41,101 bases of DNA from Patescibacteria group bacterium UBA6130. Lineage in GTDB: Bacteria; Patescibacteriota; Microgenomatia; UBA12405; UBA6130. The translations under genes and the position numbers were made by a program. The notes under the pieces were generated by a model. It did not search any database, was not told where the DNA came from, and saw only the letters and a program-made list of their open reading frames with translations. The stretch spans positions 9,554-50,654 of the forward strand of contig DIVO01000050.1 of the NCBI GenBank assembly GCA_002428285.1, in the 5' to 3' direction. Positions 6,832 through 28,318 of the stretch are shown one piece after another (position 1 is the stretch's first letter; each line of letters begins with the position of its first letter).

Positions 6832-6909
6832 AAAAAGAAAGCAATTATCCATATAAATTGCCAGAAAGGATGTTGATTTAAGTTCAATTTGGTGATATTA
6901 TATTTAAAT

Positions 6910-8991: not shown

Positions 8992-9345
8992 TCCTCGGTA
9001 GCTCAGTTGGTAGAGCGCCCGCCTGTCAAGTAGGCAGCCTAAGATAGTAATGTCTTAGTGAATAACTGGGTGAATTCAGGGAAGTCTAAATGGTGATAGT
9101 TTTAACCACATGATAATCCTGAGCCAATCCTTCGCTAAAGCTACGGATTGCAAGCAATCTGTTTGATGTTTGCTAATTCAATGCTTTATTGAAGGCAGGT
9201 GCAGAGACTAGGTGATTACATCTTTAAGCGCCCAGCCCCGTACACTATTTTTTAAATAGTGCGGGGATGATATAGTCCACGCCTTGACGAAAGTCTAGGA
9301 TAAAGTGTAAGCGGTTGGTCCCAGGTTCGAGTCCTGGCCGAGGAG
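8992..9345 (+). tRNA. tRNA-Asn (anticodon GUU) interrupted by a group I intron. Exons are 8992-9026 and 9308-9345.
   Basis: The joined exons give a 73-nt cloverleaf: TCCTCGG-TA-GCTC-AGTTGGTA-GAGC-G-CCCGC-CTGTTAA-GCGGT-TGGTC-CCAGG-TTCGAGT-CCTGG-CCGAGGA-G. The UCCUC.G acceptor plus G73 is close to E. coli tRNA-Asn as I recall it. There is one C27-U43 mismatch. Confidence 0.8.
9027..9307 (+). ncRNA. Group I self-splicing intron (IC3-like, tRNA anticodon-loop type), no internal ORF
   Basis: The core string AAGGCAGGTGCAGAGACTAGGTGATTAC (9192-9219) matches the Azoarcus tRNA intron core GAAGGUGUAGAGACUAGACGGCAC from memory, and CCTGAGCCAATCC matches GCCGAGCCAAGC. P7 candidate is GACTA 9206-9210 / TAGTC 9273-9277. 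P1 pairs exon CUGU 9023-9026 with GCAG 9034-9037, with a U-G wobble at the 5' splice site. G9307 immediately precedes the 3' exon. Peripheral hairpin at 9236-9266. Confidence 0.8.
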
Positions 9346-9666: not shown

Positions 9667-9858
9667 ATGGCTAAGATTGAAGAACTTTTGACACTGAAAC
9701 AAGCTGCTCAAATACTCAAAGTTAATGAGCAAACTCTCCGACGTTGGGACATAGAAGGCCGATTAAAGGCTGTTAGAATCGGTTCAAGACGTGGTGTTGG
9801 AGACCGACGTTATAGACCTGAAGATATTAAAGATTATCTAAACAGGCAAAAGAAATAA
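9667..9858 (+). CDS. Small helix-turn-helix DNA-binding protein (excisionase/MerR-superfamily type)
   Basis: LLTLKQAAQILKVNEQTLRRWDIEGRLKAVRIG....RYRPEDI fits the excisionase-family HTH pattern. It lies 17 nt upstream of hsdR. Confidence 0.7.
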   Translation: MAKIEELLTLKQAAQILKVNEQTLRRWDIEGRLKAVRIGSRRGVGDRRYRPEDIKDYLNRQKK

Positions 9859-9875
9859 TAGGAAATAAAATAAAT

Positions 9876-12098: not shown

Positions 12099-13609
12099 CC
12101 AAGATTCCAAAACAAGAACTCCAGTCAACCATAGACCAGATTTGCAATAAATTGTGGGCAGCGGGTTTGACTAACCCTATTACTTACATCGAACAAATAT
12201 CTTATTTCTTTTTTCTTAAGATGCTTGAGGAATGGGATAACCAGAAAGCTAAAGAAGCGAAACTTATCGGACACACTAACGGGAATAAGTCCATGTTTGA
12301 GGGAGAAAATGAAAAATATCGCTGGAGCCAATGGACACATATTGCCGACAATACCCAGATGTATAAATTCGTTCGTGATGAAGTGTTTCCTTTTATGGCA
12401 AACCTTCCAGGAACCAATGAGGCAGTTAGGCGGTTCTTTGATGATGCCAGATTTCAAATTCCTGATGGAGTAGTCCTTCGGGATGTTGTCGATAAACTTC
12501 GAGACGTTTCCTTTATCGAGCTCGATGCTGATGTTAAAGGTGATTTATACGAATATCTTCTAAACCAACTCACAACTTCAGGCAAAGCAGGACAATTTAG
12601 AACTCCAAGGCATATTATTCGAACCATTGTTCAACTAACCAATCCTCAAATTGGTGAAACAATATTAGACCCCGCCAGCGGTACAGGTGGTTTTCTCTTA
12701 GGAGCTTACGAATGGATAAAACTTTGCAATTCAGACCCTAAAAATATTGAGGAATTAGTTAATGGTGGTGGACAGATATCCAAAAAAGGCCCAGGAGACA
12801 AGCTCAATCCTTCACAGTGGCAATTCCTACAAAGTGGAACGTTTTACGGCTTTGACGTTGACGCTGCAATGGTCAAGATTGCCACTATGAACCTTATTCT
12901 TCATGGTTTGGATAAATCGCAAGTAATAAGGCGTGATGCAGTGGCTGGTAGTCCTGATGAGTGGGAAGACCGAGAATATGACGTGATTATCTCCAATCCT
13001 CCATTTGCGGGAACTATTAATAAGGAAAGGGTTAGAAAATATTTACCTGTTCAATCAACTGATACTACAACCTTGTTTTTAGGATTGATGATTGATGCCC
13101 TAAGACCAGGCGGAAGAGCAGGGGTAATTGTCAACGAAGGAATCCTTTTTAACCGAAACAAGGCCTCACAGGAAGTAAGACGTTATCTCATGGATAAAAG
13201 AAATCTTGTAGCAGTTGTTTCTTTGCCTGGTGGTATTTTTCAACCTTATTCTGGAGTTAAAACAAGTGTTTTGTTCTTTAACAATGATGGCAAGAAAACA
13301 GAAAAGGTATGGTTTTATGAAGTTCAACAAGATGGGTTTGGACTTGCAACTCAAAGAAAACCAACTCCAGATAAAAATGACCTTCCAGACTTGATTGAGA
13401 AGTGGTCAACCAAACCAGAATCTGCAAACAGTTGGTTTGCAACCAAAGCACAGATAGAAGAGAACAACTTTATTATTTCCTCATCTGCATATAAGCCGTT
13501 AACGAAGGATGACTTTGTCTACCGAGACCCAAAAGAGATTTTCAAAGAAATTCAGGAATTAAATAAACAATCCCAAGAGCAATTAAAGAAAATTGAAAAA
13601 TTTATATGA
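12095..13609 (+). CDS. hsdM: Type I restriction-modification system, N6-adenine DNA methyltransferase subunit
   Basis: Motif I DPASGTGGFL, motif IV ISNPPFAG, and an HsdM N-terminal helical domain. Confidence 0.95.
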   Translation: MTKIPKQELQSTIDQICNKLWAAGLTNPITYIEQISYFFFLKMLEEWDNQKAKEAKLIGHTNGNKSMFEGENEKYRWSQWTHIADNTQMYKFVRDEVFPFMANLPGTNEAVRRFFDDARFQIPDGVVLRDVVDKLRDVSFIELDADVKGDLYEYLLNQLTTSGKAGQFRTPRHIIRTIVQLTNPQIGETILDPASGTGGFLLGAYEWIKLCNSDPKNIEELVNGGGQISKKGPGDKLNPSQWQFLQSGTFYGFDVDAAMVKIATMNLILHGLDKSQVIRRDAVAGSPDEWEDREYDVIISNPPFAGTINKERVRKYLPVQSTDTTTLFLGLMIDALRPGGRAGVIVNEGILFNRNKASQEVRRYLMDKRNLVAVVSLPGGIFQPYSGVKTSVLFFNNDGKKTEKVWFYEVQQDGFGLATQRKPTPDKNDLPDLIEKWSTKPESANSWFATKAQIEENNFIISSSAYKPLTKDDFVYRDPKEIFKEIQELNKQSQEQLKKIEKFI

Positions 13610-14310
13610 ACTATAAATTTATTGCAACCCAGTTTGGAGAGGCAGTTAAATACGATACAACCGTTAACGAAGTAAGCAGAACTTTCAATGCCCTCACCAA
13701 CCTCAAAAGGAAAGATTATGTCAATGATGCAATTACTTCAGCTCGTTCAGGATTGATTTATTCATGGGTGATGACTATTGGCGACTCAAACCTTGAAGAA
13801 TCAGACAAATGTGAACTTGTAAGGCAGGCAATAAATACAATAGTGATAAACGACAAGGTAAAAGAAAAGCTGTTGGGATTACTGGGGACATCGAGATGTT
13901 TACCTAAAACGAATTCGTCTAGTTATGTGAACTCAAGCAGGCTAGATGAAATTAAAGCGTTGAATTGTAAAAATTTTGATTTATCTAGGTTGATAAAACT
14001 TTGTGACGAGTTAAATATGTCTTTCGAAAATAAGTGCTATTTTTCTGTTGCAATACTGGTTCGGTCATTATTAGACCATGTTCCGCCAATCTTTGGAGTA
14101 GGCTCATTTACGGAACTGGCCAATAACTATCAAGGGACAAGGAGTTTCAAGGCACAAATGCAGCATCTTGAATTGTCATCTCGGAAAATAGCCGACTCAT
14201 ATTTACATACACAAATTAGAAATAAGGAATCGTTGCCCAACTCAACGCAAGTGGATTTTTCAAACGACCTAGATGTGTTGTTAGGCGAGGTGTACCGATT
14301 ATTAAAATAA
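13606..14310 (+). CDS. Uncharacterised 234-aa protein inserted between hsdM and hsdS
   Basis: ATGA overlap with the hsdM stop and a 1-nt gap to the hsdS start. No catalytic motif recognised. The C-terminal half is helical (..LVRSLLDHVPPIFG...SSRKIADSYLHTQIR..). Confidence 0.7.
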   Translation: MNYKFIATQFGEAVKYDTTVNEVSRTFNALTNLKRKDYVNDAITSARSGLIYSWVMTIGDSNLEESDKCELVRQAINTIVINDKVKEKLLGLLGTSRCLPKTNSSSYVNSSRLDEIKALNCKNFDLSRLIKLCDELNMSFENKCYFSVAILVRSLLDHVPPIFGVGSFTELANNYQGTRSFKAQMQHLELSSRKIADSYLHTQIRNKESLPNSTQVDFSNDLDVLLGEVYRLLK

Positions 14311-14311
14311 T

Positions 14312-15478
14312 ATGAATAACTGGCAAGCTAAGAAACTTGGAGATATAACAGTAATAAATGGTGGAGGAACACCTCCTACAAGCCATGCTGAATATTTTAA
14401 TGGCGATGTGCCTTGGTTTACTCCTTCCGAGATTACCTCTGGAACAGTTTCCGTTTTAACTAATAGTCAAAGGCAAATTACAGAAGAAGCAACGAAGTTC
14501 TCTAAGGTAGCCGAGCAAGGAACGGTTTTATTGTCTAGTAGGGCAACTATAGGAAATATTGGAATAGTAGCTAATCGTTCAACTTACAATCAAGGAATTA
14601 AAGGAATAACCCCAAAAGAAGATTTAAACTCATGGTTTCTTGCTTACTGGCTATTAGCAAACAAAAAAGGATTAGAAAAATCATCATTTGGAACAACATT
14701 TAAAGAATTAAGCACAACAGCTCTAAAAAAATTTGATATTACAATTCCGCCTATTTCTGTTCAACAAAAAATTGTTGAGCGTTTAGACTCAATCAGAAAA
14801 TTGCAGGAATTAAACCAAAAAGAAATTGAAAAGGCAGAAGAATTATTTGACTCATTATTGAGTGTTAAATTTTACCCCAATAAAGCATATAAAAGGTTAA
14901 ATTTTGAAGATGTCGTTACTTTTAAGAGGGGGCCTTTTGGTGGTTCACTAAAGAAAGAAATATTTGTCTCAGACGGTTTTAGAGTTTATGAGCAAAGAAA
15001 TGCGATATATGATGATTTTACTAACTGTAGGTATTTTATTACTGAAGAGAAATATAAAGAGATGATTGGTTTTGCTGTTAAAACTGGGGATTTAATAGTT
15101 AGTTGCTCGGGGACAATTGGAAAGGTTGCCTTGGTACCGAATAAAGTTTCTCCAGGAATCATAAATCAAGCCTTACTAAAAATTACTCCAAAAATAGATA
15201 TTGTCCTCAGCGAATACCTCAAATATTTAATTCAGAGTAGAGATATGCAGATTAAAATGTTTGGAAATGCCCGTGGTTCTTCTATTAAAAATATCGTTTC
15301 GATTAAAGAGATAAAAAAACTTGTTTTATCTCTACCATCTATTAAAGAACAACAGCAAATTGTTAAGGAGTTAGATTTTGTAGCAAATATACATGAGACT
15401 AAAATTCTATTAAAGAAATCAATATCGCAAATCTATGAAAATAGCCTCATTAAGGCAATGAAAGGAGAAATGGTTTAA
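14312..15478 (+). CDS. hsdS: Type I restriction-modification system, specificity subunit
   Basis: 388 aa with two target-recognition halves. Each begins with a ..G..PP../..GPFGG.. type segment and ends in a conserved helical spacer (PPISVQQKIVERLDSI... and LPSIKEQQQIVKELDF...). Its position follows hsdM. Confidence 0.9.
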   Translation: MNNWQAKKLGDITVINGGGTPPTSHAEYFNGDVPWFTPSEITSGTVSVLTNSQRQITEEATKFSKVAEQGTVLLSSRATIGNIGIVANRSTYNQGIKGITPKEDLNSWFLAYWLLANKKGLEKSSFGTTFKELSTTALKKFDITIPPISVQQKIVERLDSIRKLQELNQKEIEKAEELFDSLLSVKFYPNKAYKRLNFEDVVTFKRGPFGGSLKKEIFVSDGFRVYEQRNAIYDDFTNCRYFITEEKYKEMIGFAVKTGDLIVSCSGTIGKVALVPNKVSPGIINQALLKITPKIDIVLSEYLKYLIQSRDMQIKMFGNARGSSIKNIVSIKEIKKLVLSLPSIKEQQQIVKELDFVANIHETKILLKKSISQIYENSLIKAMKGEMV

Positions 15479-15480
15479 TA

Positions 15481-15807
15481 ATGAAAATTATTTATAAAAC
15501 AAAATTCTATTGCATGTTTTGTAAAAAAGAACTCCCGTTAGATGTATATGGTAGTGATGTTAGTGCGAGTGAAGATAAGGAATTTGATAAAGAGGTAAAA
15601 GAGTGGGGTGAGCATTACCATTGGATAGATGCACACAGGAGATGTGCTATATGTGGCGAATTGGTTACCTCTGATGACTTGGAGTTGTTAGTAAACGATG
15701 GGAAAACTAACATTCACGAAGAATATCTCAACCAAACCTATGAAAAAAGTCATAAAGGACATTTGTTAACCGTTCATGGAAAATGCATTAAAGAAAACAA
15801 CTTATGA
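15481..15807 (+). CDS. Uncharacterised small zinc-ribbon-like protein (108 aa)
   Basis: Two CxxC pairs (CMFC, CAIC) plus His-rich HYHWIDAH and HGKC. It starts 2 nt after the hsdS stop and overlaps the next ORF by 4 nt. Confidence 0.65.
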   Translation: MKIIYKTKFYCMFCKKELPLDVYGSDVSASEDKEFDKEVKEWGEHYHWIDAHRRCAICGELVTSDDLELLVNDGKTNIHEEYLNQTYEKSHKGHLLTVHGKCIKENNL

Positions 15808-17108
15808 AGGTTGAAGATAAACCAAAATATGTTAAGGAAGCAAGGGAGTTGCAAGACTCAATAAATGTCGATTCTCTAATTGATGACCCCAACGAACTTT
15901 CTACATTGAGGAAAATTAGCCGCTTGATAGCTATTTTTACCAATTTTTCTTATAACGATGGCCAAGAACTGAAACGTCTATTATTAGAATTCCAGAAGTG
16001 GTCAAGACGTAGCACGAGTGTAGGTACTATTCGAAACAGAGCTGTTGACATGCTCCAATTCATTAGCCAAAAAATTGAAGAGATGGATATTTATGTAATA
16101 GATGAACCAATAAAAAAGAACCAGGATAGAATTGTCAGTAAACTAAAGAATGAGAAATATTGGGTTCAACAGAATCTGGAAGGAAAAGACTTACATATTA
16201 TCGTTGGAGAAAGAAGTGCTAAACAAGGAGAGCACATACATGTTATTAGCGACTCAGATACGGGTGAAATTAGGTTCGACTCCAAAGACCAGCAACCAAG
16301 TGAACTATTAGAACGAGTGGTTAGTTTAGTAACTAAGAGTGGAACTACTATCGGGGTAACTCAAAAAGGGATTAAAACAACAACTGAATTTATCGAGACA
16401 AATATAGAAGGTAATCCCAATAAAGATATACCGATTCTTTATGCAACAGGAGTGCGTCGAAGTGGTGGGTCAAAAGGCCATTTCGAGTATGTCATGATTA
16501 AAAATATTGGAAAGGAAATTGCCCTAGATATTCATTGGGGAATCAGAGGATTTGCTTATGAATGGAGACCGACGGAAGAACCTTTTGAGTTGGAGGCTAG
16601 CAAGGAGCGAGAGGTTACCTATCCAATTTCGGAAGAAAAGGTATTTAAGGAGGACATTCCTGAGCTAAACGTGATAATGGAGTATAAAGATGTTAACGGC
16701 AATGCTTATTTCACTCGAAGAGAGCTTAAACAAATTAGAGTATCATCTGGGGCATTCTTTAAACTTAAAGCTGATACATTTCATCCTCCGTCCATATTAG
16801 TAGATGATGGCCTTGAAATAGTTTCTGAGCCAATTCGAACTGGGGATAGAGTCGAGGCCACCTTTAAGATTGGAGTTCAAGGTCAGACTAAGCTGGTAAA
16901 AATAGGGTTGAGTGGCAACCTAATAGCTGTTCTAGACCTACAGACAGGTGATTTATTAAGACAGGCAATACTTGAGCTTGCCCACAGGAAAATACGAAAG
17001 ATGGTTAAATTAGATAGCCTTGCGGATTATAGTTTTACCACCCACGACCTACCAGAAGGTCATCCAGTAGGATTTGGTGCTTACGTTCTCCTAAGAGATT
17101 CCATATAG
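15804..17108 (+). CDS. Uncharacterised 434-aa protein, last gene of the hsd transcription unit
   Basis: Long clean ORF with a helical N-terminal third and a beta-rich remainder. No P-loop, nuclease or methylase motif recognised. Confidence 0.7.
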   Translation: MKVEDKPKYVKEARELQDSINVDSLIDDPNELSTLRKISRLIAIFTNFSYNDGQELKRLLLEFQKWSRRSTSVGTIRNRAVDMLQFISQKIEEMDIYVIDEPIKKNQDRIVSKLKNEKYWVQQNLEGKDLHIIVGERSAKQGEHIHVISDSDTGEIRFDSKDQQPSELLERVVSLVTKSGTTIGVTQKGIKTTTEFIETNIEGNPNKDIPILYATGVRRSGGSKGHFEYVMIKNIGKEIALDIHWGIRGFAYEWRPTEEPFELEASKEREVTYPISEEKVFKEDIPELNVIMEYKDVNGNAYFTRRELKQIRVSSGAFFKLKADTFHPPSILVDDGLEIVSEPIRTGDRVEATFKIGVQGQTKLVKIGLSGNLIAVLDLQTGDLLRQAILELAHRKIRKMVKLDSLADYSFTTHDLPEGHPVGFGAYVLLRDSI

Positions 17109-17283
17109 TTGCGTTTGATAGTGCACTTACCAAAGCACCCCAGCATCTTTTTGATGGTTTGGCCTTACCTGTTTCGATATAAGAAATGTATTCCCGAGTA
17201 TACCCACTCAGATTAGCTAGTTGTTGTTGACTAATGTGCTTTTTGCCCCTTGTTCTTAAGGCATACAGTTCGTTTGGTTTCAT
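17035..17283 (-). CDS. XRE-family helix-turn-helix transcriptional regulator
   Basis: ISQQQLANLSGYTREYISYIETGKAKPS is a canonical Cro/C1 HTH. A GGAGGTG RBS lies 7 nt upstream of the ATG. The 3' end overlaps the convergent 434-aa ORF by 74 nt. Confidence 0.85.
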   Translation of the reverse strand: MKPNELYALRTRGKKHISQQQLANLSGYTREYISYIETGKAKPSKRCWGALVSALSNATIWNLLGERKHQILLDDLLVGRGW

Positions 17284-17551
17284 AAGTGACCACCTCCATA
17301 TTTGAATCGTCGCTAAGGACTTTATTCTCTTCTACATCTTTTATCATCTCTAACTGATTCTTTACTTGAGACATTACCTCTTTATCTAGGAGTACAGCAG
17401 GAACATCTGCTGGTCTGGGGAGCTGAATTTGTCTTAATCTACCTAAAATATCAGTGGATTATTTATTAAAACGAATTTATTATATCGATCTGTTTTCTTA
17501 TTAGATAGGAATTTGGACATTATTATTAATTAAGTCTATAGTTAAATTATA

Positions 17552-17809
17552 ATGAGTAAGTTGAAAGATTTTTTACTTGATACAGGTTTTAAAAGAGATA
17601 AACTTAAAACTCCTTATAAACTCCTTTTATCGGGTTGTTTTCTTTTATTTATGATACTTTTATATATCATATTTGGAGATTTAGGAATTATTGGTGCGGG
17701 AATTTATGCGGGAGTTTCATATTATTTTGGTAAAGGTCTCTTTTTGTTAATTATTAAGGCTTTCAAAAAAGATATTTACTACTCTGGAGAATATAGGGCA
17801 GATAAATAA
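17552..17809 (+). CDS. Small membrane protein (85 aa, 2 TM)
   Basis: Two hydrophobic helices. No motif. Confidence 0.45.
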   Translation: MSKLKDFLLDTGFKRDKLKTPYKLLLSGCFLLFMILLYIIFGDLGIIGAGIYAGVSYYFGKGLFLLIIKAFKKDIYYSGEYRADK

Positions 17810-17913
17810 GGAACGCTAAGCCGCAACTTTTATTACATCTGAATCTGTTTCAGTCTTTCTCTTTTATTCTTTTAATTATCATATTTATCTATTTTTGATA
17901 GAATAGTCTTAAT

Positions 17914-18837
17914 ATGCCGATTTATAAACAGACCGATAGCAAGCTCATTCCTATTAAAGAAAAGAAGGTAGGTCTTGAAAAAACCCTACAAAATCTAGTT
18001 GAAGCCAACTTGAGTGATGTTTTTGCTTTGAATTTTATTGCTGCGGAATTTCCTTTAAACAATCTTCGGATTGATACGCTGGCTTTTGATGAAGAAGCTA
18101 AGGCTTTTGTGGTTATTGAATACAAGCGAGATAGAAACTTTACAGTAATAGACCAGGGCTATGCTTATCTTGCCCTGTTGCTAAACAACAAGGCAGATTT
18201 TGTCCTTGAATATAATGAGAAGACTAAAAAAAATTTGAGAAAAGACGATATTGATTGGTCACAGTCTAAGGTGATGTTTGTTGCTCAGTCTTTCACAAAA
18301 TACCAGCAGGAAGCTATCGGATTTCAGGATTTGCCAATTGAACTTTGGGAAGTAAAGAAATATGATGAGCGTTTAGTTTCTTTTAACCAGGTAAGAGCGT
18401 CTGAAAAAAGCGAGAGCATAAAAACTATTACTAAGAATAAAGATATTCAGCAGGTGTCTAGGGAAATTAAACAGTATTCAGTTAAAGACCATATCAAGTC
18501 TAATTGGAGCAAGTCTAGGGAGCTATTTGATGAGTTTTCCCAGCGGGTTTTGGAGCTTGACACTCGTTTTGAGACAAAACCAGTAAAATCCTATATAGGT
18601 TTCCGTATAGGAAATAAAAATGTAATAAATGTTAAACCTAGAAGTTCTAAAGTGGTAATCGAATTTTTAAGAACTCAACCTCAGGATTTGAAAGACCCAG
18701 AAAAGAGAGTAACTTATTTTAAAAATAGCTTCAAGTATTACAACCAGCACGTAAGTTTATTCAGTGTTGAAAATGAAGATGATATTGACTATGGTATATC
18801 TCTTGTAAAACAGGTTTATAGGAAATTTACCGAGTAA
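17914..18837 (+). CDS. PD-(D/E)xK (NucS/DUF91-like) nuclease-fold protein with a DUF5655-like C-terminal domain
   Basis: N-terminal RIDTLAFDEEAKAFVVIEYKRDRN...VIDQGYAYLALL fits the D...ExK restriction-endonuclease-like core. The C-terminal ..SYIGFRIGNKNVINVKPRSSKVVIEF.. resembles DUF5655 (family name from memory). Confidence 0.65.
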   Translation: MPIYKQTDSKLIPIKEKKVGLEKTLQNLVEANLSDVFALNFIAAEFPLNNLRIDTLAFDEEAKAFVVIEYKRDRNFTVIDQGYAYLALLLNNKADFVLEYNEKTKKNLRKDDIDWSQSKVMFVAQSFTKYQQEAIGFQDLPIELWEVKKYDERLVSFNQVRASEKSESIKTITKNKDIQQVSREIKQYSVKDHIKSNWSKSRELFDEFSQRVLELDTRFETKPVKSYIGFRIGNKNVINVKPRSSKVVIEFLRTQPQDLKDPEKRVTYFKNSFKYYNQHVSLFSVENEDDIDYGISLVKQVYRKFTE

Positions 18838-18845
18838 TCATAATT

Positions 18846-19166
18846 ATGTTTAAACACACAAAAGCTTTTTACCGTGCTATAGCCAGAATTAGAGCAATTG
18901 GTAACAAAGATGGTATTGTATATCTTCGCCGTTTGAAATCCAAACTGGGTTTAGGGTATGTAAGAACAGCAAGGCTAAAGGATGAGCTGGTAGAAGCAGG
19001 CGTGTTAAGAGAATGGAGTGAAGAAGATCTTAGGGGGCTACCTATAAGAAAAGGGGTTAAGGGTAACATCAACTGGGAACGGTTGAGCAAATTTAGAGTC
19101 CCGAAAGAAATTACTAAAAAAGAAGAGGCTCTTGTTAGGGAAGATCGAAAGCAGGGTTTATTCTAA
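18846..19166 (+). CDS. Stand-alone FtsK-gamma-like winged-helix protein (106 aa)
   Basis: YLRRLKSKLGLGYVRTARLKDELVEAGVL parallels the FtsK gamma-domain consensus LQR.L.IGYNRAARLIDQME..GIV. It starts 8 nt after the preceding gene. Confidence 0.55.
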   Translation: MFKHTKAFYRAIARIRAIGNKDGIVYLRRLKSKLGLGYVRTARLKDELVEAGVLREWSEEDLRGLPIRKGVKGNINWERLSKFRVPKEITKKEEALVREDRKQGLF

Positions 19167-19290
19167 GGATTTCAAAAGCGGTTTTGATATTTTGTAAGGT
19201 AAGACCAAACTCAAGTTCTTGGTTGATAAATAAGTCCTTTAGGGGGAGCTTAGGTTGGTTTAATCTGACCATGTTGGAAGGCGGTGATTT

Positions 19291-19670: not shown

Positions 19671-20140
19671 ATGAACCTTAGAAAGCTTTGGAGGAAAACC
19701 AATCTTATTGTAAATAAAGAGATAGTTATAAACAAACAAAACGGCGGAGACTCAATCTACTATAGACTTTTAATTTCCAATGAAGAAAATTACGTGGCAG
19801 AAGATGTAGAGATTTATGTGGTTGAAGTTACCAATAAAAACATTTCCTCCCCGTTCCGTTAATTTGGACCCACGCAAGAGTTTATAAGACAGCGGGTGTG
19901 TATAGAAATATTCATCCAAAACAATCAGTCCTATTAGATTTATGCAAGTTCATTAAGAGTAGAAATTTGTTGAAGTTTGAACTGGTTGCTGGAGAAGAAG
20001 TTTCTGATTATTGTATTCTGGATGGAAATAATAAAGATGTAACCTTGAAAATATATCAGAAGAGTGGGGAAACAATACCTGTTGGGCTAAACCTTGAGTG
20101 GAGAAATGGTAATGAGCCATTATTTACTCTGGTAAACTAG
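19671..20140 (+). pseudogene. Hypothetical gene disrupted by a frameshift in an A5 run
   Basis: Track ORFs 19659..19862 and 19898..20140 are in different frames. The second frame is open from 19838, and the two frames overlap exactly at AATAAAAAC (A-run 19836-19840). One extra A would give a continuous ~156-aa product. Confidence 0.55.
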
Positions 20141-20536
20141 TAATACTTTAATTTGTTTTAATCTTTCCCTTGTTTGTTCCGCCACTATTGGATTTTGAAA
20201 AGCCTTGATAATTGAATTCAAACTGTCGGTCAGTGTAAAATTAGGACTACGGAGCCAGGCATGACGAGAGGCGTAAAAAGCTATCTTGTTAAATGGATTT
20301 AGCCAGTTAAATTGGACTTTTTTGCCCTTTAGCTCCAAGTTCTGAAGTGCCATCTTCAAAAGTAGCCGTTTTTCGTGGACTTCAGAACTTTCAAACAACT
20401 TACCTGCGTTAGAAGCCAGTTTTGGCAGGTATTCTGAGGTCAAATAGTATTCTTCATCGGCATAGTTTAGTTTGCCAATTTTCTTGGTAATTTCTTTCTG
20501 TTTTGCCCGATACTCTTTTCGTTTTTCCTCAATGTC
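20120..20536 (-). pseudogene. Serine (large) recombinase, C-terminal fragment F1 (5'-truncated)
   Basis: The open frame has no ATG: ..IEEKRKEYRAKQKEITKKIGKLNYADEEYYLTSEYLPKLASNAGKLFESSEVHEKRLLLKMALQNLELKGKKVQFNWLNPFNKIA.. This matches the characteristic coiled-coil/C-terminal region of large serine recombinases as I recall it. The catalytic domain is absent. Confidence 0.65.
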
Positions 20537-20582
20537 TTAAATGGATATTTAGGCTGAAATTTCGTAGAATAGCGGAAACAAT

Positions 20583-21128
20583 ATGTATAACCAATTGTTT
20601 TCAGACCAATGGGTTTTTGATAGATGTGTGGAAAGCGAAAGTGTTTTTATTCCCCTAATTGTTATCGTTTCGATATCTATTTTGATCTTTCTTTATCGTT
20701 ACTTGAAAAGGCGGAGGGCGTTTTTCATGGTCGCTTTCTTTTTAACTCCTCTAATTGTATTTATTGGTAGTTTGCTTCTGGGGTTTTCTGTTTGTAGTGC
20801 AGGCTCAATTTGGAAAGGGATAAGACCTGCGCTTGAGCTCGATAACAAAATGAAAAAGGTGTGTGTGAATGACAAGTGCCCCAAATCAGAGGATGAGTTG
20901 TCTAGACTAGACACCAATCCTTATCAGCAAATATCTTCTAATGCATAGATTAGATATAATTATAATCAGTCTACCGGAGAATTTGTTTGCTATGTTCAAT
21001 CAAGCAGGTACTATGTAGGTATTTTTCAGAAGGGCACATTCGGTCTCAATAAGATTTCCCCATTTTTACCGATAAAACACTGGGAAAATGTCCCGACCTA
21101 TAATGACAAGGTAGAGCTGCTTCCTTAG
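20583..21128 (+). pseudogene. Membrane protein gene with an in-frame TAG (20946-20948)
   Basis: The frame of ORF 20583..20948 stays open for 59 more codons after the TAG, with a protein-like sequence (IRYNYNQSTGEFVCYVQSSRYYVGIFQKGTFGL...). TAG is a genuine stop elsewhere in the window, for example in the Nudix gene. Confidence 0.5.
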
Positions 21129-21358
21129 TCTTGGTTGTATTTATTACAACGATAATTGTTCTGATACTGTTTGTGGCTCGTCTTTGGTTTGGTTATTAAA
21201 GCAAACCTTCGCTTTAAGTGACGTCCTTTTATGTCATCCAGAGCGGGGAGCACAGTTGAATTTTTAGGTCGATTTGCGAGTATAAAGTACGGTTTTTTCC
21301 AGTTCCATCGGGCTTTTCCGTCCTTCCACTCCAAGTTCTCACAGAAGATATCGGTCAT
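21125..21358 (-). pseudogene. Serine recombinase C-terminal fragment F2 (diverged)
   Basis: KREMTDIFCENLEWKDGKARWNWKKPYFILAN aligns with F1 KRLLLKMALQNLELKGKKVQFNWLNPFNKIAF (KR-x8-NLE.K..K...NW..P[FY]). The DNA motif CTCCAAGTTCT is shared with F1. Confidence 0.5.
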
Positions 21359-21495
21359 TTCCCTTTTGTTTTCCGGTAAGTCTAATCGTAATTTTTTGGT
21401 TACGTATTTAATGTTATAACTAAGAACCCTTATGGGGATTGAGCTATTTTGACCTTAAAAAGAGGAAGAAGCAAATGTAAGACCTTAATTAATCT

Positions 21496-23034
21496 CTATT
21501 TTGCCTGTCTTAAACTACTACCATCCCATTCAATTACCGGTTTATCACCATATTTTGCATTTATTTCTACAGATTCACTTAACCATGTACCATAATCTAT
21601 TGTCTTGTTCTTTGGACCCTCAAAAGGGGCAATAGCAAAATACACTGTAATCTTGTAACTATTTGGAGGTGTTTCCACTAGTTTACCACTAGCTTTTAGA
21701 TCTGCCGGTCGGAAACCAGACTCAAACCCTTCTCCATTTCCAAATACCTTACCTAAAGTATAGATACCTCCTAGATCTCTATCTTCCGCAGGGTTAGCAT
21801 CTAAATCATCCCAACACTCAGAGGAGTAACACATATCCATCATAAATGAATCGCTACTAACATTGACCACCTTTATAATTTGAATACCAGCATTCTCTGC
21901 TGAATTACTCTCTTCTGCTTTTTCTTCTTTCTCTTCAACCTTTGAAGTATCTTCTTGTTTCTCTACAACACTACCCTTTTGTTCTATCTCTTTAGATATA
22001 TCTTCTACAAACCCTACTACTTCTTCTTGAGTCATTGGTTCATAATCTTTGTTAATACTCTTTATCCACTCCTCTACCTCAGCCACTTCCATTTCTGCAA
22101 CAGTTATATCTCCAGGATATTGAGTATTTTTAATCACTTGAAAAGAAGGATGATATTCAAAATTTTTAAGATCTATTCCAATAACTTTTCCTTCCTGAAC
22201 AGTATCTCTAAATTGCTCTAGTCCGACCATAACTGAATCAAACTTACCATAAGCTGAACCCAGATTATTAGGGATATTAGTTATAGTTAAAACAGAAGCA
22301 ATGGGTTCTGTAACTGTTCTAACATCCTTGACAAAGGAGGATACCTTGTTCCTATCCCCAAGGGCTATTTTCGCACTATCTTCAGTTACCTCTAGAGCCA
22401 AATCTGCGCCTACAACAACTGTAGTCACTTGAGCTACAGTTCCCGCAGCACCACCAGTTGCTACAATACCCCCTACATAAACAGTAACTTTACAAGTGTC
22501 TTTAACAGCAATAGCTTGATTCTCTAAATTCTCAAAAGTATCTCCTGCTTCTCCCCACGCCTCTCTAGTTACCATATCTTGAGATTGATTTAGTATTAAC
22601 TGAGCCCTTTTAGCATCTACTCCTAGATGTTGAGCCAATGTCCTTATCTGTCTTCCTGCAGGAGCCTTCTCTACTACTGCTTGGACTTCGGCATAGGTAT
22701 ATGCATATGCCTTCTGTACAAAGTTAAATGCCGTTGTCTCATTAGACATCTCCTCTGCATTCTCTTCTAGTTTTAATACTTTACTCTCTAATGCTTCCCA
22801 CTCTTGAATAATTGAGGCCATCTGTTCATTCCAATCATCGTAGCTTTCATAATCTTTTGCATTTACTAAAACATTATCCGTTTTGTATCTTAATACTAAA
22901 TACTCTTTAGATATTGTCAATGTATCCCCATATACAATCTGCTCTATCTTTTTATTATTTCCAAAAAGAAGGAAAGCCAGAACTGAGAATATGATAATAA
23001 AAGAGAGAAGGAGAAAAATATTTTTTTTAGACAT
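21496..23034 (-). CDS. Uncharacterised membrane-anchored/secreted protein (512 aa)
   Basis: N-terminal TM/signal anchor (IFLLLSFIIIFSVLAFLLF), a coiled-coil segment, a Gly/Ala/Val-rich stretch and an acidic linker. No catalytic motif recognised. Confidence 0.65.
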   Translation of the reverse strand: MSKKNIFLLLSFIIIFSVLAFLLFGNNKKIEQIVYGDTLTISKEYLVLRYKTDNVLVNAKDYESYDDWNEQMASIIQEWEALESKVLKLEENAEEMSNETTAFNFVQKAYAYTYAEVQAVVEKAPAGRQIRTLAQHLGVDAKRAQLILNQSQDMVTREAWGEAGDTFENLENQAIAVKDTCKVTVYVGGIVATGGAAGTVAQVTTVVVGADLALEVTEDSAKIALGDRNKVSSFVKDVRTVTEPIASVLTITNIPNNLGSAYGKFDSVMVGLEQFRDTVQEGKVIGIDLKNFEYHPSFQVIKNTQYPGDITVAEMEVAEVEEWIKSINKDYEPMTQEEVVGFVEDISKEIEQKGSVVEKQEDTSKVEEKEEKAEESNSAENAGIQIIKVVNVSSDSFMMDMCYSSECWDDLDANPAEDRDLGGIYTLGKVFGNGEGFESGFRPADLKASGKLVETPPNSYKITVYFAIAPFEGPKNKTIDYGTWLSESVEINAKYGDKPVIEWDGSSLRQAK

Positions 23035-23161
23035 GTTATTTTTAAAAAAAGATTTAGATAGTGATTATTATAGTATAAAGAATATATTACTCCAATAGGT
23101 TATTCAGGTTCTAAACGTGTATGTCCCGCCATTATTGAGTTGTTCCAACAAGACCCGTCCA

Positions 23162-23500
23162 CTACCCTGAAATATTTTTAAAAGCTATTGTTAGATACAT
23201 AAAGTATTTATAAATATCTTCATCTGTAGAATTATATTGGTTCTCATATTTAAAATAATCGACCCATATCTCTCTCATTCTAGTAAGTTCTCTATACTGA
23301 GATGGGGTTAATTTAGATCCTTTTGATAAATCAAAAAGCTTTAGTGATCTTATAAATGCAATATCCGCATACTCTTTATTGTTTTTATTTCTCCAATTAA
23401 CAGCCCTGTATACCTCGCTACCAATATTGGCCATCTGTTCTAAATATGGCTTGCTTTGCCAACTACTTTGTGGTTGTTTTTTATGTTGAATATTTCTCAT
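23162..23500 (-). CDS. Hypothetical helical protein (112 aa)
   Basis: Clean ORF. Its start overlaps the stop of the upstream (frameshifted) gene as TAATG. Conserved-looking LEQMANIGSEVYRAVNWRNKNN. The family is not identified. Confidence 0.55.
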   Translation of the reverse strand: MRNIQHKKQPQSSWQSKPYLEQMANIGSEVYRAVNWRNKNNKEYADIAFIRSLKLFDLSKGSKLTPSQYRELTRMREIWVDYFKYENQYNSTDEDIYKYFMYLTIAFKNISG

Positions 23501-23840
23501 TATTCAGTAATTTTAGAATTAACAATATCTAAAATTTTTTTTCGAATATCTTCATTATCTACCCCTCTTGAGTTATTATTTTGAGAAGGTCTTAAATTAA
23601 TCATAGAGTCAAACTCTATTCTCTCTTCTTTGTCTAAATCTGGATATATATTTATACCCCAAAGATTTCTTGTTTAGAACCTAATTGAAGTAGATATGCT
23701 TCCTCATCTGAGTGTAACTCAGCATTAACAACTAAAATTTCCTTCTGCACATCAACAACGGCTTTAACTAAATTATGGAACATTTTGGATGACATGTCCT
23801 TTAGTTCTTTAATACTAATCTTGTCTTCTACAATTTTCAT
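23500..23840 (-). pseudogene. Small conserved protein (DUF5674-like, name from memory) with a frameshift in an A3 run
   Basis: Part 1 is MKIVEDKISIKELKDM...AELHSDEEAYLLQLGSKQE (track 23652..23840). Part 2, in another frame, is NLWGINIYPDLDKEERIEFDSMINLRPSQNNNSRGVDNEDIRKKILDIV... The junction is GAAATC (plus-strand TTT 23666-23668). One extra A would restore ..SKQENLWGIN.. Confidence 0.65.
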
Positions 23841-24492
23841 ATCTTTATCATATCAGGAATTATGTTTTCTTTCCTCTCTTTTTATACTGTATTATTTGTC
23901 TCATTTTGTGAAAAAAGTCAAAAGCGGACTCAATTAAATATCTCTTGATTCAAAGTAGGAATGCTCTTTAAGAATAATCTGCTTGGGTGGTTGTCCAATG
24001 GCTAATGTGTGGCAAAACGGTCTACCGTTGGAAAAATCTGCCCATACATGAGTAATTGAACATGCACTACTACCTGAATTGTTGCTAATGATAGCAGAAA
24101 ATCCTATAATGATGGAGATTGTGATGGAAAACATCATTCTAGACTAAACTGAAAGGATGTGATTCTAGTGAAAAAGACTACTGTGAAGTTGAAGCTGGCA
24201 AATCTTATTTCTCACTCACAAGGAAGATGGGTATATTTTACAACTAAATACTGCGTGTGTTGGTAACCAGGTAGAGGAAGGTTGGGAACAGAAAAATGTC
24301 TATCTTGGAAAAATGTGGCTGTTGAATTCGAACCAGAAGTGGGGGGCCGTTTGTTCTTGGGGTAAAAGATAGTGTCTAAGTTACTGTAAATTTAGGTAGA
24401 GTTGAAAGAAGGTTCGAATATAGTTAAGGAAAGAGATCTGAAGATAGATGGCACGTTGAAGGAGCCACTATAACTGGACCTTTGGACACTGA

Positions 24493-24801
24493 CTAGCGAG
24501 ACGAAACTAAATTTATGCCACCTTCGATTTTTGTTTCTATGCATCCAAAGAGTGAGAATAAGTACAACAGATTACCTGCTGTAGATTCAAAAATGAAGGC
24601 GACTATGAATGGTCTAGCTAGTGAAATAGCTACGGCTTTCAAGTAAGGCGAGAATGATAGCAGACTATAGATTGCGGGGATAAGGGAAGGTTTTACTTTC
24701 TCTATTTCCTCTTTGATTTGGGCTACCAGCCTAAAGTTAGAGAAAACCTTGATAATACTGGACAATTGCGTGGTTATATTAACGTTACGATCCTCGAGCA
24801 A
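24493..24801 (-). pseudogene. Serine recombinase extreme 3'-end fragment F4
   Basis: LEDRNVNITTQLSSIIKVFSNFRLVAQIKEEIEKVK parallels F1 AWLRSPNFTLTDSLNSIIKAFQNPIVAEQTRERLKQIK. The 27-nt DNA match GTTATATTAACGTTACGATCCTCGAGC (24773-24799) corresponds to 26821-26848. Homology ends abruptly at 24801. Confidence 0.5.
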
Positions 24802-24850
24802 AAAATATATATAAAAACTAAAGCAAATTTGTTTATGATATTATGTTTGT

Positions 24851-26047
24851 ATGAGTGAAACTGTTCCTTCAATTGGTGTTCCGCGCTCGGTTGTCGAATC
24901 TCCAGAATCCATAATAAAAAGTGAATCAGCTCCATTTGTTGGCTACCTCTTAGTTGAAAATCTAATTAAAGAAAGAATTATAGACGGGTCAATTTTATTT
25001 GAGCCATCGGAAGAAAATAAAGAAAGAACAGCTGTTGTAGTTGAGAAAGTAATGTCAGAGTCTAATAAATCTTTAATTGAGCCGATTGAAATTACCGAAG
25101 ACTTCGAAGTCATAGAACAAAAAGGTAAAAAAATTCTTGCCGACTACATTACAGATTTATCCGTTAGGGAGATTATTTCGGATAACATTATTACTTTAAC
25201 CAGTCGAATAACAAGAGCAGAAGATATCAGGGTCTTACAAGGCGAGGGGGGCATAAATTATGATTCCAGAGCAGATAGTGGTAGGTTTGCAGATGAAGAC
25301 GGAAACAATTTTATTGAAATCTCATTTGGAAAAGATATCTTAGGTAATAGGATGACTTACTATAGTAAAATATTAAATAGCCTTGGAGTTAAAACTGACC
25401 AGGGTGCTCTTCTCGAGATGGCTTTAGCTTCAATTATTGGTCACGAATGGTCACACTCTGTTCAAAGAGCTGTTAAGACTGATTTGGCACTCAAGCTCGA
25501 AGCGGATGGAAGATATAGCGAATCCCTTGACGACGATTTAAGTGTTAGCCAAATATCAAGAACTTTACTTTTTAGAGTCGCTACTAGGGTTGTATCTGAA
25601 ACGGGGGTAATAACCGATTTAAAGCCGGCAGATCAAGAAGAGGTAGATAGCGAGAGATTTGCTACTGGATTTGAGTGGGATGCGGCCACTAGCGTTTTAA
25701 GAAGAAGAGGATTTTCTGAAGAAATTACAAATGGTTTCAGACAAAAAATAATTAAAGACGCTGAGAAAAGACTTGATGGTATGAAAAGCTTCTTTACTTG
25801 CCTACAGAATCTGGGCATTGATTTAGACGATATTCCCACTGTTTGTATGAACGCAAGACTAGCCCTAAGGTCCTACAATATTTCCATTCCAGATATAATT
25901 CCTCGACTTTGGTCGGATGTGGGTTACGAAGCCGGCTACACAACTAATGAATTAAAAGAAATTCTTACTTTAAGTGAGCAAGAAGCCAGCCGTGCTGACC
26001 TTTTTAATCAAATAATCGAGATGAGAGAAAAAGAAACCGAATATTAA
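24851..26047 (+). CDS. Uncharacterised protein with an HExxH motif (398 aa)
   Basis: ALASIIGHEWSHSVQRAV contains HEWSH (HExxH zinc-peptidase signature). There is no signal peptide. The rest is unrecognised. Confidence 0.55.
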   Translation: MSETVPSIGVPRSVVESPESIIKSESAPFVGYLLVENLIKERIIDGSILFEPSEENKERTAVVVEKVMSESNKSLIEPIEITEDFEVIEQKGKKILADYITDLSVREIISDNIITLTSRITRAEDIRVLQGEGGINYDSRADSGRFADEDGNNFIEISFGKDILGNRMTYYSKILNSLGVKTDQGALLEMALASIIGHEWSHSVQRAVKTDLALKLEADGRYSESLDDDLSVSQISRTLLFRVATRVVSETGVITDLKPADQEEVDSERFATGFEWDAATSVLRRRGFSEEITNGFRQKIIKDAEKRLDGMKSFFTCLQNLGIDLDDIPTVCMNARLALRSYNISIPDIIPRLWSDVGYEAGYTTNELKEILTLSEQEASRADLFNQIIEMREKETEY

Positions 26048-26292
26048 TTATAAATTCTATATTTCTTCATCAAATACATTTAAAACCGGCTCCAAAATCG
26101 TTCTATCCGAACAGAGGTACGAAAATTCAGAACTCTTACAACAGGACAGTAAGCAGGAATAATCATTTTAAGAGAAGGTGTAAACTTATTACACATTCCA
26201 AGTGTTTGTCTTATCTATATTGGTAAATTTTACTACAACTCGACAATGATCGGCTTAGATAGTACAATTATAAGATTGAAAGGAGGCAAAAT

Positions 26293-26490
26293 ATGAAAGG
26301 AACAATTAAAACAAAAACAGATAAAGGATTCGGATTTATTTCTCGTGAAGGAGAGGAAAAGGATCTTTTTTTCCACTCTAATGATTTGAGTGGTGTTACG
26401 TTTGACGAGCTTCAAGTAGGAGCAGTCGTTGAGTTTGATGTTGTAGAAGGTGACAAGGGTTCAGCTGCAAAAAATGTAAAACTCGCCTAA
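26293..26490 (+). CDS. csp: Cold-shock domain protein (CspA family)
   Basis: KGFGFI (RNP1) and DLFFH (RNP2-like), 65 aa. RBS AAAGGAGG 7 nt upstream. Confidence 0.95.
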   Translation: MKGTIKTKTDKGFGFISREGEEKDLFFHSNDLSGVTFDELQVGAVVEFDVVEGDKGSAAKNVKLA

Positions 26491-26515
26491 TAACGTTAAT
26501 TGAACGATACAAAAA

Positions 26516-26539
26516 GCCTCGCTTTATGCGGGGCTTTTT
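26516..26539 (+). terminator. Rho-independent terminator of csp
   Basis: GCCTCGC-tttat-GCGGGGC stem-loop followed by TTTTT. Confidence 0.8.
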
Positions 26540-26787
26540 AAGTTTTGGCAGAATAGAGACATGAATAGGTAAATCTGTAGGTAGGGTAAGTTATAAAACA
26601 ACTTCCAGGTGCGGTTGGTTTACACCTGCCCATGGATGAACTTAAATCGTTCAAGATCTTGTGCCAAATGTTTTATTTCTTCCAGCCTCTTTGTTGAAGT
26701 TGGCTAATAAACCTAAAATCCTCAAAAACCTTGAAAATAAGTACAAATTGACTGGTTATCTTTACCCTTACTAGAAACAAGTTTTGC

Positions 26788-27018
26788 TTAATTATTAACA
26801 AGCAAATTTCTATTAGGATTGTTTATATTAACCTTACGATCCCCGAGCTTAGGTTGACGAGAGGGTAAAGCTATTTTATTAAAGGGCTCTTTATCCACTC
26901 AAGTTGGACTTTTTTGTCCTTTAACTCTAAGTTAATTAATCTGAATATCTTTGAGAGATAACCCTTCTTTTTCCTGTTTAAGCGTTGATACTCTGGCTAA
27001 AATTACAGCTTTGGTTAT
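26788..27018 (-). pseudogene. Serine recombinase remnant F3, with the N-terminal catalytic-Ser segment joined to the C-terminal tail (internal deletion plus frameshifts)
   Basis: I-TKAVILARVSTLKQEKEGLSLKDIQ fits the resolvase/invertase N-terminal motif (.YARVST..Q...G.SL..Q). It is followed within 10 codons by LINLELKDKKVQLEWIKSP and, in another frame, PFNKIALPSRQPKLGDRKVNIN. About 75% nucleotide identity to F1 over ~110 nt by eye. Confidence 0.6.
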
Positions 27019-27697
27019 ACTGAAAAAGCGTTTCCTTTACCTAAATTGCATTTTTGGCATTTAGTTTCTAGGTTTTCAAGTATTGTTTCGCCTCCTTTTG
27101 ACCAAGGTATTATATGGTCAACGTGTAGCTCAACACCTTTTTCCTTCATAGGGCTTCTTCCGCATTTTGAACAAGTAAAACCATCACGCATTAAGATACG
27201 AAATCTAAGCCTGTCTGAAATATCTCTGGTTGTTTTATGCTTTATTTCTTTTTTAATATTTTGTTTTTCTTTTTTATTAGGCTTAGGCAATTCAGTGTTT
27301 GGCCCATCTTTATTGATATATTTAACAAACTCTTTTAGTGCTTTTGTCCAACTCCCAAAATGATATTCGTATGCACCAGCAACAAATTTTGAGAGTGGTT
27401 TTTTCATTTCTCTATATTTTGGTTGTCTTCCAAGCTTCATCCAAACTTCCTCAAGGTTTCTAAAATATTCTTCCAATGAAATACCTAGGTTTCGGCTTTT
27501 CTTTAGCCCAGCCTTTTTTAATGTTTTCAGCCAACCTCCAAACCTTCTTGAGAGAGTAGATGAGTGAAATTTGCCATTAGAATTGTATTCTTCCGCAGTT
27601 ACGTATCTTTATCCAGAAGTTTTGAAACTCTGATTAAATCGTTAATAAGTTCATTATTTGTCACATTTCTATGATAATCAGTAAGCTCAAATTTCAT
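27015..27697 (-). pseudogene. HNH endonuclease with two homing-endonuclease-associated repeats, disrupted by a frameshift
   Basis: C-terminal HNH CSKCGRS...HVDHIIPWSKGGETILENLETKCQKCNLGKGN. Repeats FHSSTLSRRFGGWLKTLKKAG and YEYHFGSWTKALKEF. The N-terminal 31 codons (from ATG 27697) stop at a TAA. The downstream frame opens 2 codons earlier, so the shift window is ~27602-27608. Confidence 0.75.
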
Positions 27698-28119: not shown

Positions 28120-28318
28120 ACTTTATTTATACAACTTTTGGGGATAAAAAGCTGGGAGAGGAGGGTTAAAAGTTTAGGAATCGGTTGATTTCCTTGTTCG
28201 TAAATTCAGGGTATTCCAGGTAGTTTGCCCAGTCTGTTCGTCGAAAAACATACCATCGTTCGAGCATGAGTAGATTTATACTTGAAGTTGAAAAAGCCAA
28301 TTAGTATCCAATATAACC

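Follow-up and report, generated by a model that had tools for sequence, protein, structure and literature searches.

The closest described case to the locus analyzed here is that of the Dehalococcoides ssrA islands with the recombinase DsiB. In these, tandem islands are located at the transfer-messenger RNA (tmRNA) gene, and DsiB, a serine recombinase of ~540 amino acids (aa), is encoded on the reverse strand at the left attachment site attL (McMurdie et al. 2011, PMC3146451). The 3' end of the DsiB gene overlaps the attachment (att) site, and it was suggested that a complete gene may exist only in the circular form or where another island adjoins (PMC3146451). The present analysis concerns a window of 41,101 nucleotides (nt) from Patescibacteria group bacterium UBA6130, namely, positions 9554-50654 of contig C26 in an 805-kb, 78-contig, 95%-complete assembly, and the relics of large serine recombinase (LSR) genes downstream of its tRNA-Asn gene. 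Coordinates are window positions unless another locus is named, and labels with G and L denote genomes and loci of relatives. A pile-up at a stable-RNA gene has already been described in other bacteria; here it is found in a tiny uncultured bacterium of the Candidate Phyla Radiation (CPR) type.

As in the ssrA islands, a single stable-RNA gene, here tRNA-Asn, is followed downstream by repeated att cores of uniform orientation at six junctions, and in relatives the reverse strand beside attL carries the recombinase gene, whose 3' end overlaps the att site (G036, G081, G021, and L028). In this position, the window has only remnants. Some homologues of the present LSR family are annotated from Dehalococcoidia and Chloroflexota. 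The two systems differ in the target, which is tRNA-Asn, often intron-split, and not tmRNA, and in the core of ~4-8 nt (GCTC), compared to a 20-bp direct repeat in the ssrA islands. In contrast to the six-gene module of the latter, no DsiA-like small second serine recombinase was found in the backbone of the relatives' elements. The hosts are of the CPR type with ~0.8-Mb genomes, and the present tails, the C-terminal extensions of the recombinases, are conserved, typed peptides. Nothing specific on serine integrases of CPR bacteria or Patescibacteria at tRNA-Asn was found in the literature.

Phage LSRs (phiC31, Bxb1, and A118/LI Int) share with the present family the resolvase domain, the recombinase domain, the zinc ribbon with a coiled coil, and a short core without long site identity. 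Their attP is located outside the integrase open reading frame (ORF), and attL is no substrate without a directionality factor. The 3' ends of tRNA genes are classic targets of tyrosine integrases, not of serine integrases. In the archaeal virus SSV1, the integrase is a tyrosine recombinase with attP inside int, and the gene is split near its middle into two large parts. The present recombinase ORF likewise spans its own attP, and integration would alter the protein and leave gene pieces at tRNA genes; unlike in SSV1, the exchange is confined to the last 35-60 codons, and all catalytic and DNA-binding domains are kept. Cis-mobilizable elements (CIMEs) occur in tandem arrays where integrase-less units keep att sites beside newer elements, with tyrosine integrases. 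Tandem arrays with integrase-less units keeping att sites are a shared feature, whereas the recombinase here is of the serine type and mobilization in trans would be a candidate process. Accretion and CIMEs at ICESt1/ICESt3-type sites are mentioned in PMC3146451.

Recombinase remnants and tails downstream of tRNA-Asn

The stretch from ~9346 to at least 28267 is very probably an accretion array, in which at least six small LSR-driven elements of one family were serially inserted at the 3' end of tRNA-Asn and have all decayed. The core genes dnaG (5029-6831) and rpoD (6889-8001) lie left of the array and are followed by the tRNA gene and the junctions:

8992-9345, plus strand: tRNA-Asn(GUU) with a group I intron in the anticodon and exons matching the tRNA-Asn of relatives; anchor of the array (attB side)
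19156-19257, minus strand: junction F0, with tail D (..LPLKDLFINQELEFGLTLQNIKTAFEIL), core 19246-19249, and upstream a recombinase 3'-end vestige of ~6-12 nt (CAACCTAA), as in F3
20120-20542, minus strand: junction F1, with recombinase C-part 20258-20542, core 20252-20255, and in-frame tail A 20120-20251
21125-21406, minus strand: junction F2, with a diverged recombinase C-terminal piece at ~21255-21406 (NLEWKDGKARWNWKKPYF), core 21248-21251, and then an orphan 40-codon extension
24685-24830, minus strand: junction F4, with tail B 24685-24795, core 24796-24799, and upstream flank 24800-24830
26690-27019, minus strand: junction F3, an internally deleted recombinase pseudogene with core 26845-26848, the first 35 nt of tail B, and a second copy of flank and tail B
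28166-28267, minus strand: junction F5, with tail E (LERWYVFRRTDWANYLEYPEFTNKEINRFLNF) and core 28262-28265

The GCTC core was common to the tRNA-Asn 3' end and all six junctions. The homologies were read directly from the DNA alignment of these seven sites and changed partner exactly at the core in each of them, in the order tail, core, and recombinase 3' end on the plus strand. The shared sequence is GCTC, or at most TGGCTCC, and it is followed by tail sequence, not tRNA. Every recombinase remnant and tail in the whole contig lies on the minus strand, with tRNA-Asn upstream on the plus strand. A phmmer search with 73 tails against the whole contig gave five matches, all on the minus strand, at F0, F1, F2, F4, and F5, of which that at F2 rests on the recombinase part and not on the tail. 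The recombinase sequence left amounts to ~12 nt in F0, 290 nt in F1, ~150 nt in F2, at most 35 decayed nt in F4, 80 and 85 nt in F3, and none in F5.

The tRNA-Asn gene ends in ...CCGAGGAGC followed by AAG, and CCA is not encoded. It is overlooked by ARAGORN because the intron interrupts the gene; the intron itself was matched by Rfam Intron_gpI at 9017-9299 with 71.6 bits. This intron is 281 nt long, and the tRNA-Asn genes of G081, G072, and L028 are split in the same way.

Junction F1 holds the last ~97 codons of an LSR of ~490 aa together with a tail of 43 codons. Its C-part corresponds to codons ~392-489, starts at the ATT of GT/ATTACT (the slash marks the boundary), and has small indels in the first codons. 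It covered positions 392-486 of the 490 in a profile of full-length relatives (expectation value [E] 3e-38), and it was 76-84% identical to intact recombinases of 485-491 aa over their last ~95 residues. The nucleotide identity to the G081 recombinase gene was 91%, in an alignment beginning at 20542. Agreement with relatives extends up to the residues WL, after which 43 further in-frame codons follow (RSPNFTLTDSLNSIIKAFQNPIVAEQTRERLKQIK...), and F1 including this tail was 58% identical to a 549-aa LSR over 144 aa. A stop codon and frameshifts are present in the first codons, and no start codon occurs until TTG at 20443.

The recombinase match of F2 was weak (profile positions 442-488, E 0.15; tblastn, 33% identity over 66 aa, E 0.005; phmmer with P0042, E 2e-4). 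The first ~16 nt of its 40-codon extension resemble a tRNA acceptor and T-stem. A decayed tRNA downstream of F2 was considered and rejected, as the likeness was limited to those ~16 nt and 63 of 2000 shuffles were equally good.

In F3, the start codon is changed from ATG to ATA (27015-27017), and codons 1-27, including the catalytic-site motif ARVST and reaching to ~26935, are joined to approximately codon 458 (AACTTAGAG, NLE...). The remainder of the catalytic domain is gone, and the other junctions of the window are without catalytic-domain sequence. The N-part matched profile positions 2-25 (E 2e-4) and was 84% identical to the G036 N terminus over 31 aa. The frameshifted C-terminal remnant reaches 26849, and the second, decayed copy of flank and tail B occupies 26690-26809. 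Since the 5' end of the gene is present in the DNA alignment, F3 is not a simple 3' remnant.

With the tails of full-length relatives as queries, tail D of F0 (19156-19248) was matched with E 5e-12, and it is the same tail that follows the full-length LSR in the circular contig L029. Tail B of F4 matched the tails of P0073, P0011, and P0056 (E 3e-9). No demonstrable recombinase sequence was found in F4 with the profile of full-length relatives, tblastn, or the junction alignment, leaving the tail only; its flank 24800-24830 is homologous to 26792-26809 of F3 and may represent a recombinase end in advanced decay. Tail E of F5 (28172-28264) matched the tail of the 523-aa LSR P0153 (E 2e-13). No recombinase sequence was present upstream of the F5 core, and an HTH_26 gene ends at 28319.

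An earlier reading of this DNA, the original prediction, had listed F1, F2, F4, and F3 as four serine-recombinase 3' remnants. This holds for F1, F2, and, in part, F3, which also keeps its 5' end, and not for F4, which is a tail only. The same-strand series was recognized correctly, and two junctions (19156-19257 and 28166-28267) and the tRNA-Asn anchor were overlooked. The reported DNA likenesses were reproduced by blastn, with 80.5% identity over 82 nt for F1 and F3 (20262-20341 versus 26855-26933, E 6e-14 in the window) and 89.7% over 29 nt for F3 and F4 (24771-24799 versus 26820-26848, E 2e-5); the DNA similarity of F1 and F2 was marginal (73% over 49 nt, E ~0.01). The alignment it suggested for a common breakpoint placed the GCTC core at the switch point in every junction. 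No Pfam match was obtained for the four segments, since the region lies outside the Pfam domain models.

Intact relatives and the accretion model

Intact relatives of 485-491 aa contain the Resolvase (PF00239, 1.3e-18), Recombinase (PF07508), and Zn_ribbon_recom (PF13408) domains. The LSR feature of a zinc beta-ribbon with an inserted coiled coil and a C-terminal region was found in the domains of the relatives, in the hairpin predicted by AlphaFold, and in the profile match of F1. Intact genes adjacent to the tRNA were observed directly: in G036, G021, G005, and G064, the last LSR codons overlap the tRNA-Asn 3' end on the opposite strand. The ORF ends in ...FYASRQxWLP, few codons into the antisense tRNA-Asn 3' end, where TGGCTCC is the reverse complement of GGAGCCA, and the GCTC core, antisense of the tRNA-Asn 3' end, precedes the stop by 2-3 codons. 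Among 118 near-full-length relatives, ~95 end in tRNA-antisense peptides and ~15 (518-549 aa) bear tails of type C, D, or E.

Both a circular relative with an LSR plus tail and a complete integrated relative with a far-end tail were directly observed. The former, L029, is a circular contig of 9.6 kb with an 8-nt end overlap and a methylase ORF in frame across the joint; it encodes an LSR of 527 aa, tail D included, and in its attP ...CGTCAAGAG is joined to TGGCTCCCCTTAAAGGAC (right arm also given as TGGCTCCCCTTAAAGGACTTATTC). The latter, in G081, comprises the tRNA-Asn 3' exon, recombinase, methylase-S, HTH_17, a 390-aa protein, a SpoVG-like protein, a 471-aa protein, DUF5655, a winged helix-turn-helix (wHTH) protein, and tail D. 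At the protein level, no tail was detected within 40 kb of the intact genes in G036 and G081; the tail D of G081 was then found by DNA alignment, and none was found in G036. From L029 and G081, it follows that the tail is the part of the recombinase ORF past attP, located at the far end of the element once integrated. The antisense ends of the relatives' LSRs in tRNA-Asn, taken with the circle carrying LSR plus tail, place attP in the last recombinase codons. The alternative raised in the original prediction, an att site in the recombinase 3' end, is thereby borne out.

Accordingly arranged tandems occur in relatives. L028 carries a 549-aa gene with tail, cargo, a second recombinase, and an intron-split tRNA-Asn, and G021 is similar. 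In G022 and G027, tail A occurs by itself between genes, and many metagenome ORFs have it joined to a recombinase C terminus. The solitary copies, at L010 (G022, contig C65; 1510-1620) and L011 (G027, contig C3; 1504-1614), lie amid housekeeping-type genes after TGGCTCC or TGGTCC and are probably orphan attR scars of lost elements. Differences in tail A by codon position (10/9/14) did not decide between coding and DNA-level constraint. The AlphaFold model of a tail-bearing LSR (mean pLDDT 81) predicted a coiled-coil hairpin of helices 340-388 and 393-436; the tail yields no structural argument, because its model confidence is low (pLDDT 38-64).

The proposed sequence of events is as follows. 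On the free circle, the LSR ORF would span attP, so that the recombinase C terminus ending in WL continues into the tail. Integration would occur by crossover at the GCTC core, antisense of the tRNA end GGAGC(CA), after which the LSR gene would stop few codons into the antisense tRNA and the tail of ~35-60 codons would stay at its distal end. A subsequent element would take the same tRNA end and displace the older one, giving the order tail of the new element, GCTC, and recombinase 3' end of the old one. The newest unit would then adjoin the tRNA, and each older recombinase would bear the newcomer's tail. The recombinase bodies would have been lost later through independent deletions. We infer this order of events, the reuse of attL (tRNA joined to the recombinase end) as a target, and the lack of a remaining active recombinase in this genome; no intact LSR of the family was found in the 805-kb assembly, and the search for an intact copy succeeded only in related genomes and metagenomes, where intact genes and attP are present. 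An age gradient is visible, as the tRNA-proximal unit has intact operons and F1 is close to a live gene, while F3 and F4 have stops, frameshifts, and duplications.

Several points weigh against the accretion model. The tRNA-adjacent unit has no recombinase, and its HTH_17 and restriction-modification (R-M) operon is directed away from the tRNA, opposite to the canonical layout, so that a rearrangement must be assumed. Phage LSRs normally do not recombine attP with attL. The sequence downstream of F2 matches no known tail, nor tRNA significantly. The assembly is a draft of 78 contigs, and the right border of the island is not fixed, because synteny to 15 relatives showed nothing conserved past rpoD and tRNA-Asn.

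Further observations were made at related sites. In another metagenome, at L061 (6001-6765), the island is shrunk to one 254-aa ORF, an EcoRI-methylase fragment fused to a recombinase stub, between an aminoacyl-tRNA synthetase gene and tRNA-Asn/rpoD/dnaG. In G002, the closest-family relative, a more distant LSR of 540 aa (36% identity; L046, contig C5, 823-2253) is convergent with the rpoD-adjacent tRNA-Asn, and therefore several LSR lineages use the same site. A second recombinase relic lies elsewhere in the genome of the window (G000, contig C28, 3597-3872; L001, 1468-2034), where the N-terminal ~105 residues of a serine recombinase run into antisense tRNA-Gly within a tRNA-Gly/Phe/Val cluster. 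The homologues carry the names Patescibacteria, Pacebacteria, and Beckwithbacteria, which together with the genome size indicate a host of the CPR type.

The F1 boundary and alternative explanations

The homology of F1 to the G081 gene begins at the ATT of GT/ATTACT (20542). Across seven full-length genes with 36-78% protein identity, GTATTACT was the sole invariant run of at least 7 nt; a single codon was kept in only 10 of the 84 columns with an invariant residue, and the codon before ATT varied in meaning (AGT, CGT, and TGT) with GT kept. In a phmmer search of the whole library with F1, most of the 150 best cluster representatives were short ORFs. In about 52 of these 150, an unrelated leader or gene piece comes first and the homology to the recombinase sets in at profile positions 380-387 ([R/W/G/S]-I-T-x-D/E-x-Y), and only ~4 start elsewhere within 300-379; metagenome ORF sets favor open frames. 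In nine stubs with available DNA, ATTACT was kept in eight and was preceded by G-N-G-R, with G at base -2 in all nine, G at base -4 in eight, and a purine at base -1 in eight, a position occupied by T in all full-length genes. Directly before ATTACT, CACCGG(C/T)GG is common to two divergent stubs. In G064, AGGAGG is followed after 8 nt by ATG, 13 codons upstream of the boundary. A search with the N-part returned almost only full-length proteins, with no N-terminal-only counterpart ending near residue 390 among the top 120 matches under a length filter. In the AlphaFold model, the boundary coincides with the turn between the two long coiled-coil helices. The ratio of nonsynonymous to synonymous substitution rates (dN/dS) between stubs and full-length genes was 0.12-0.43; this is not informative, since the sequences had diverged before they were truncated.

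Within the window, GTATTACT occurs only at 20132-20139, at the end of the F1 tail and ~400 nt downstream of the truncated copy with which F1 begins, and another was observed in the tRNA intron of L028 (12509). Both are regarded as coincidental, as the overall counts were at or below chance.

Two readings are compatible with these boundary facts. In one, a cis-acting site recombines with pseudo-sites; in the other, the stubs belong to old lineages, and recombination with incoming elements renews their C-part. In addition to accretion, it is conceivable, though rather unlikely, that the F1-type stub from GT/ATTACT to the core is a selected unit or the product of a specific reaction, that is, a cis-acting att arm for mobilization in trans, a small protein made of half the coiled coil and the C-terminal subdomain, or a site-specific product of the internal site and a pseudo-site. 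The clustered starts at profile positions 380-387, the invariance of GTATTACT with F1 starting at its ATT, the G-N-G-R flank, the AGGAGG and ATG of G064, the lack of an N-terminal-only counterpart in the top 120 N-part matches, and the predicted position at the coiled-coil turn all point in this direction. F1 itself, with its early stop, frameshifts, and no start before TTG 20443, is not an expressed full stub, however; dN/dS does not separate the models, no nuclease, Rep, or second recombinase could be assigned among the backbone genes, and the bias of metagenome ORF sets to open frames bears on the counts.

The original prediction saw in the fragments the relics of several related serine-recombinase elements that had been inserted serially and with the same orientation; this agrees with the accretion model, and the mechanism it proposed does not. 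It took a recombinase gene as the resident target, with elements inserting into, or next to, its 3' end and each event truncating the previous copy. The common orientation of all fragments, the unrelated cargo between them, and the retention of only 3' parts in F1 and F2 would suit such insertions, but the point at which homology changes is the GCTC core, 2-3 codons ahead of the stop, rather than a site within the gene, so that crossover at the very end of the ORF swaps only the C-terminal tail, and the target is the tRNA-Asn gene instead. The internal deletion of F3 (codon 27 to ~458), which retains both gene ends, the cut of F1 at GTATTACT, and the almost complete loss of the F0, F4, and F5 copies are separate deletions. 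Moreover, the 5' edge of F1 meets unrelated non-element sequence and not an element end or tail, and full-length genes with a neighbor's tail exist (L028), which makes truncation by insertion very improbable. Least probable is true paralogy, in which the fragments would be local segmental duplicates of one remnant, as the two partial tail B copies of F3 and the homology of the F4 flank to part of F3 could suggest. Against it stand four unrelated tail types (A, B, D, and E), each matching different full-length recombinases elsewhere, the mere ~33% of residues shared by F1 and F2, and the closer relation of F1 to a gene of another genome (91% of nt) than to any copy in the window. Local duplication may be limited to the pair of F4 and the second copy in F3 at most.

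Cargo and biological meaning

The accretion model would explain why the disrupted genes of the window are clustered in ~19 kb, as this stretch would be an island rich in defense genes and cargo that grew through one insertion after another at a single tRNA. The annotated cargo is as follows:

9667-19166, plus strand: cargo of the tRNA-proximal unit, from Pfam matches
27015-27476, minus strand: HNH endonuclease with a homing-endonuclease-associated repeat (Pfam HNH, 1e-13; HNH_repeat, 1.6e-9)

The tRNA-proximal unit, in which no recombinase is left, comprises an HTH_17 gene (9667-9858), an intact type I R-M operon with passenger genes (9876-17108), DUF5655 (17914-18837), and a wHTH gene (18846-19166). 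Its stretch 17868-19243 was 74.7% identical to the distal end of the complete G081 element over 1380 nt, and the small HTH_17 gene recurs in the elements of L029, L021, L023, and L019. The HNH endonuclease, with its stop abutting the dead F3 recombinase start, is cargo or a neighbor of the oldest recognizable unit; a 32-aa repeat-like ORF upstream of it (27599-27697) suggests that the HNH gene is itself N-terminally broken. A DUF5674-like ORF of 62 aa was noted at 23652-23840, within the F2-F4 unit.

The backbone genes of the relatives encode HTH_17, the R-M methylase, a SpoVG-like protein, and 390-aa and 470-aa proteins of unknown function, with no second resolvase among them. PHROGs gave no match for cargo or backbone genes. 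The 390-aa protein (L029, 6784-7956; also L021, 6255-7427) has 1968 homologues with 63-78% identity, many on contigs of 8-10 kb, and no Pfam, PHROG, or PDB sequence match. Its AlphaFold model (pLDDT 73) has a confident N-terminal beta domain; a role as rolling-circle Rep found no support, with no Foldseek match at E ≤ 0.001.

According to the accretion model, the main cargo vehicle in these reduced genomes would be a serine-recombinase element with the attachment site in its own last codons. Metagenomes contain the family in great abundance, with hundreds of recombinase homologues. As a tentative proposal, two built-in features of the LSR, the tail swap and the internal cis-acting site GTATTACT, might be functional. 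The conserved tail of 35-60 residues, borne only on the circle or beside a newer neighbor and lost on integration at tRNA-Asn, could act as an isoform switch for directionality or copy-state sensing. The codons of the coiled-coil tip, GTATTACT, may be a cis-acting site, at which recombination or cleavage with G-N-G-R pseudo-sites may repeatedly and one-sidedly delete the element; the leftover stub of ~290 bp may preserve the mobilizability of the island or act as a pad for landing or eviction. Should either the tail swap or the internal 8-mer be functional, it would represent a new control mode for a serine integrase, relevant to genome-engineering enzymes.

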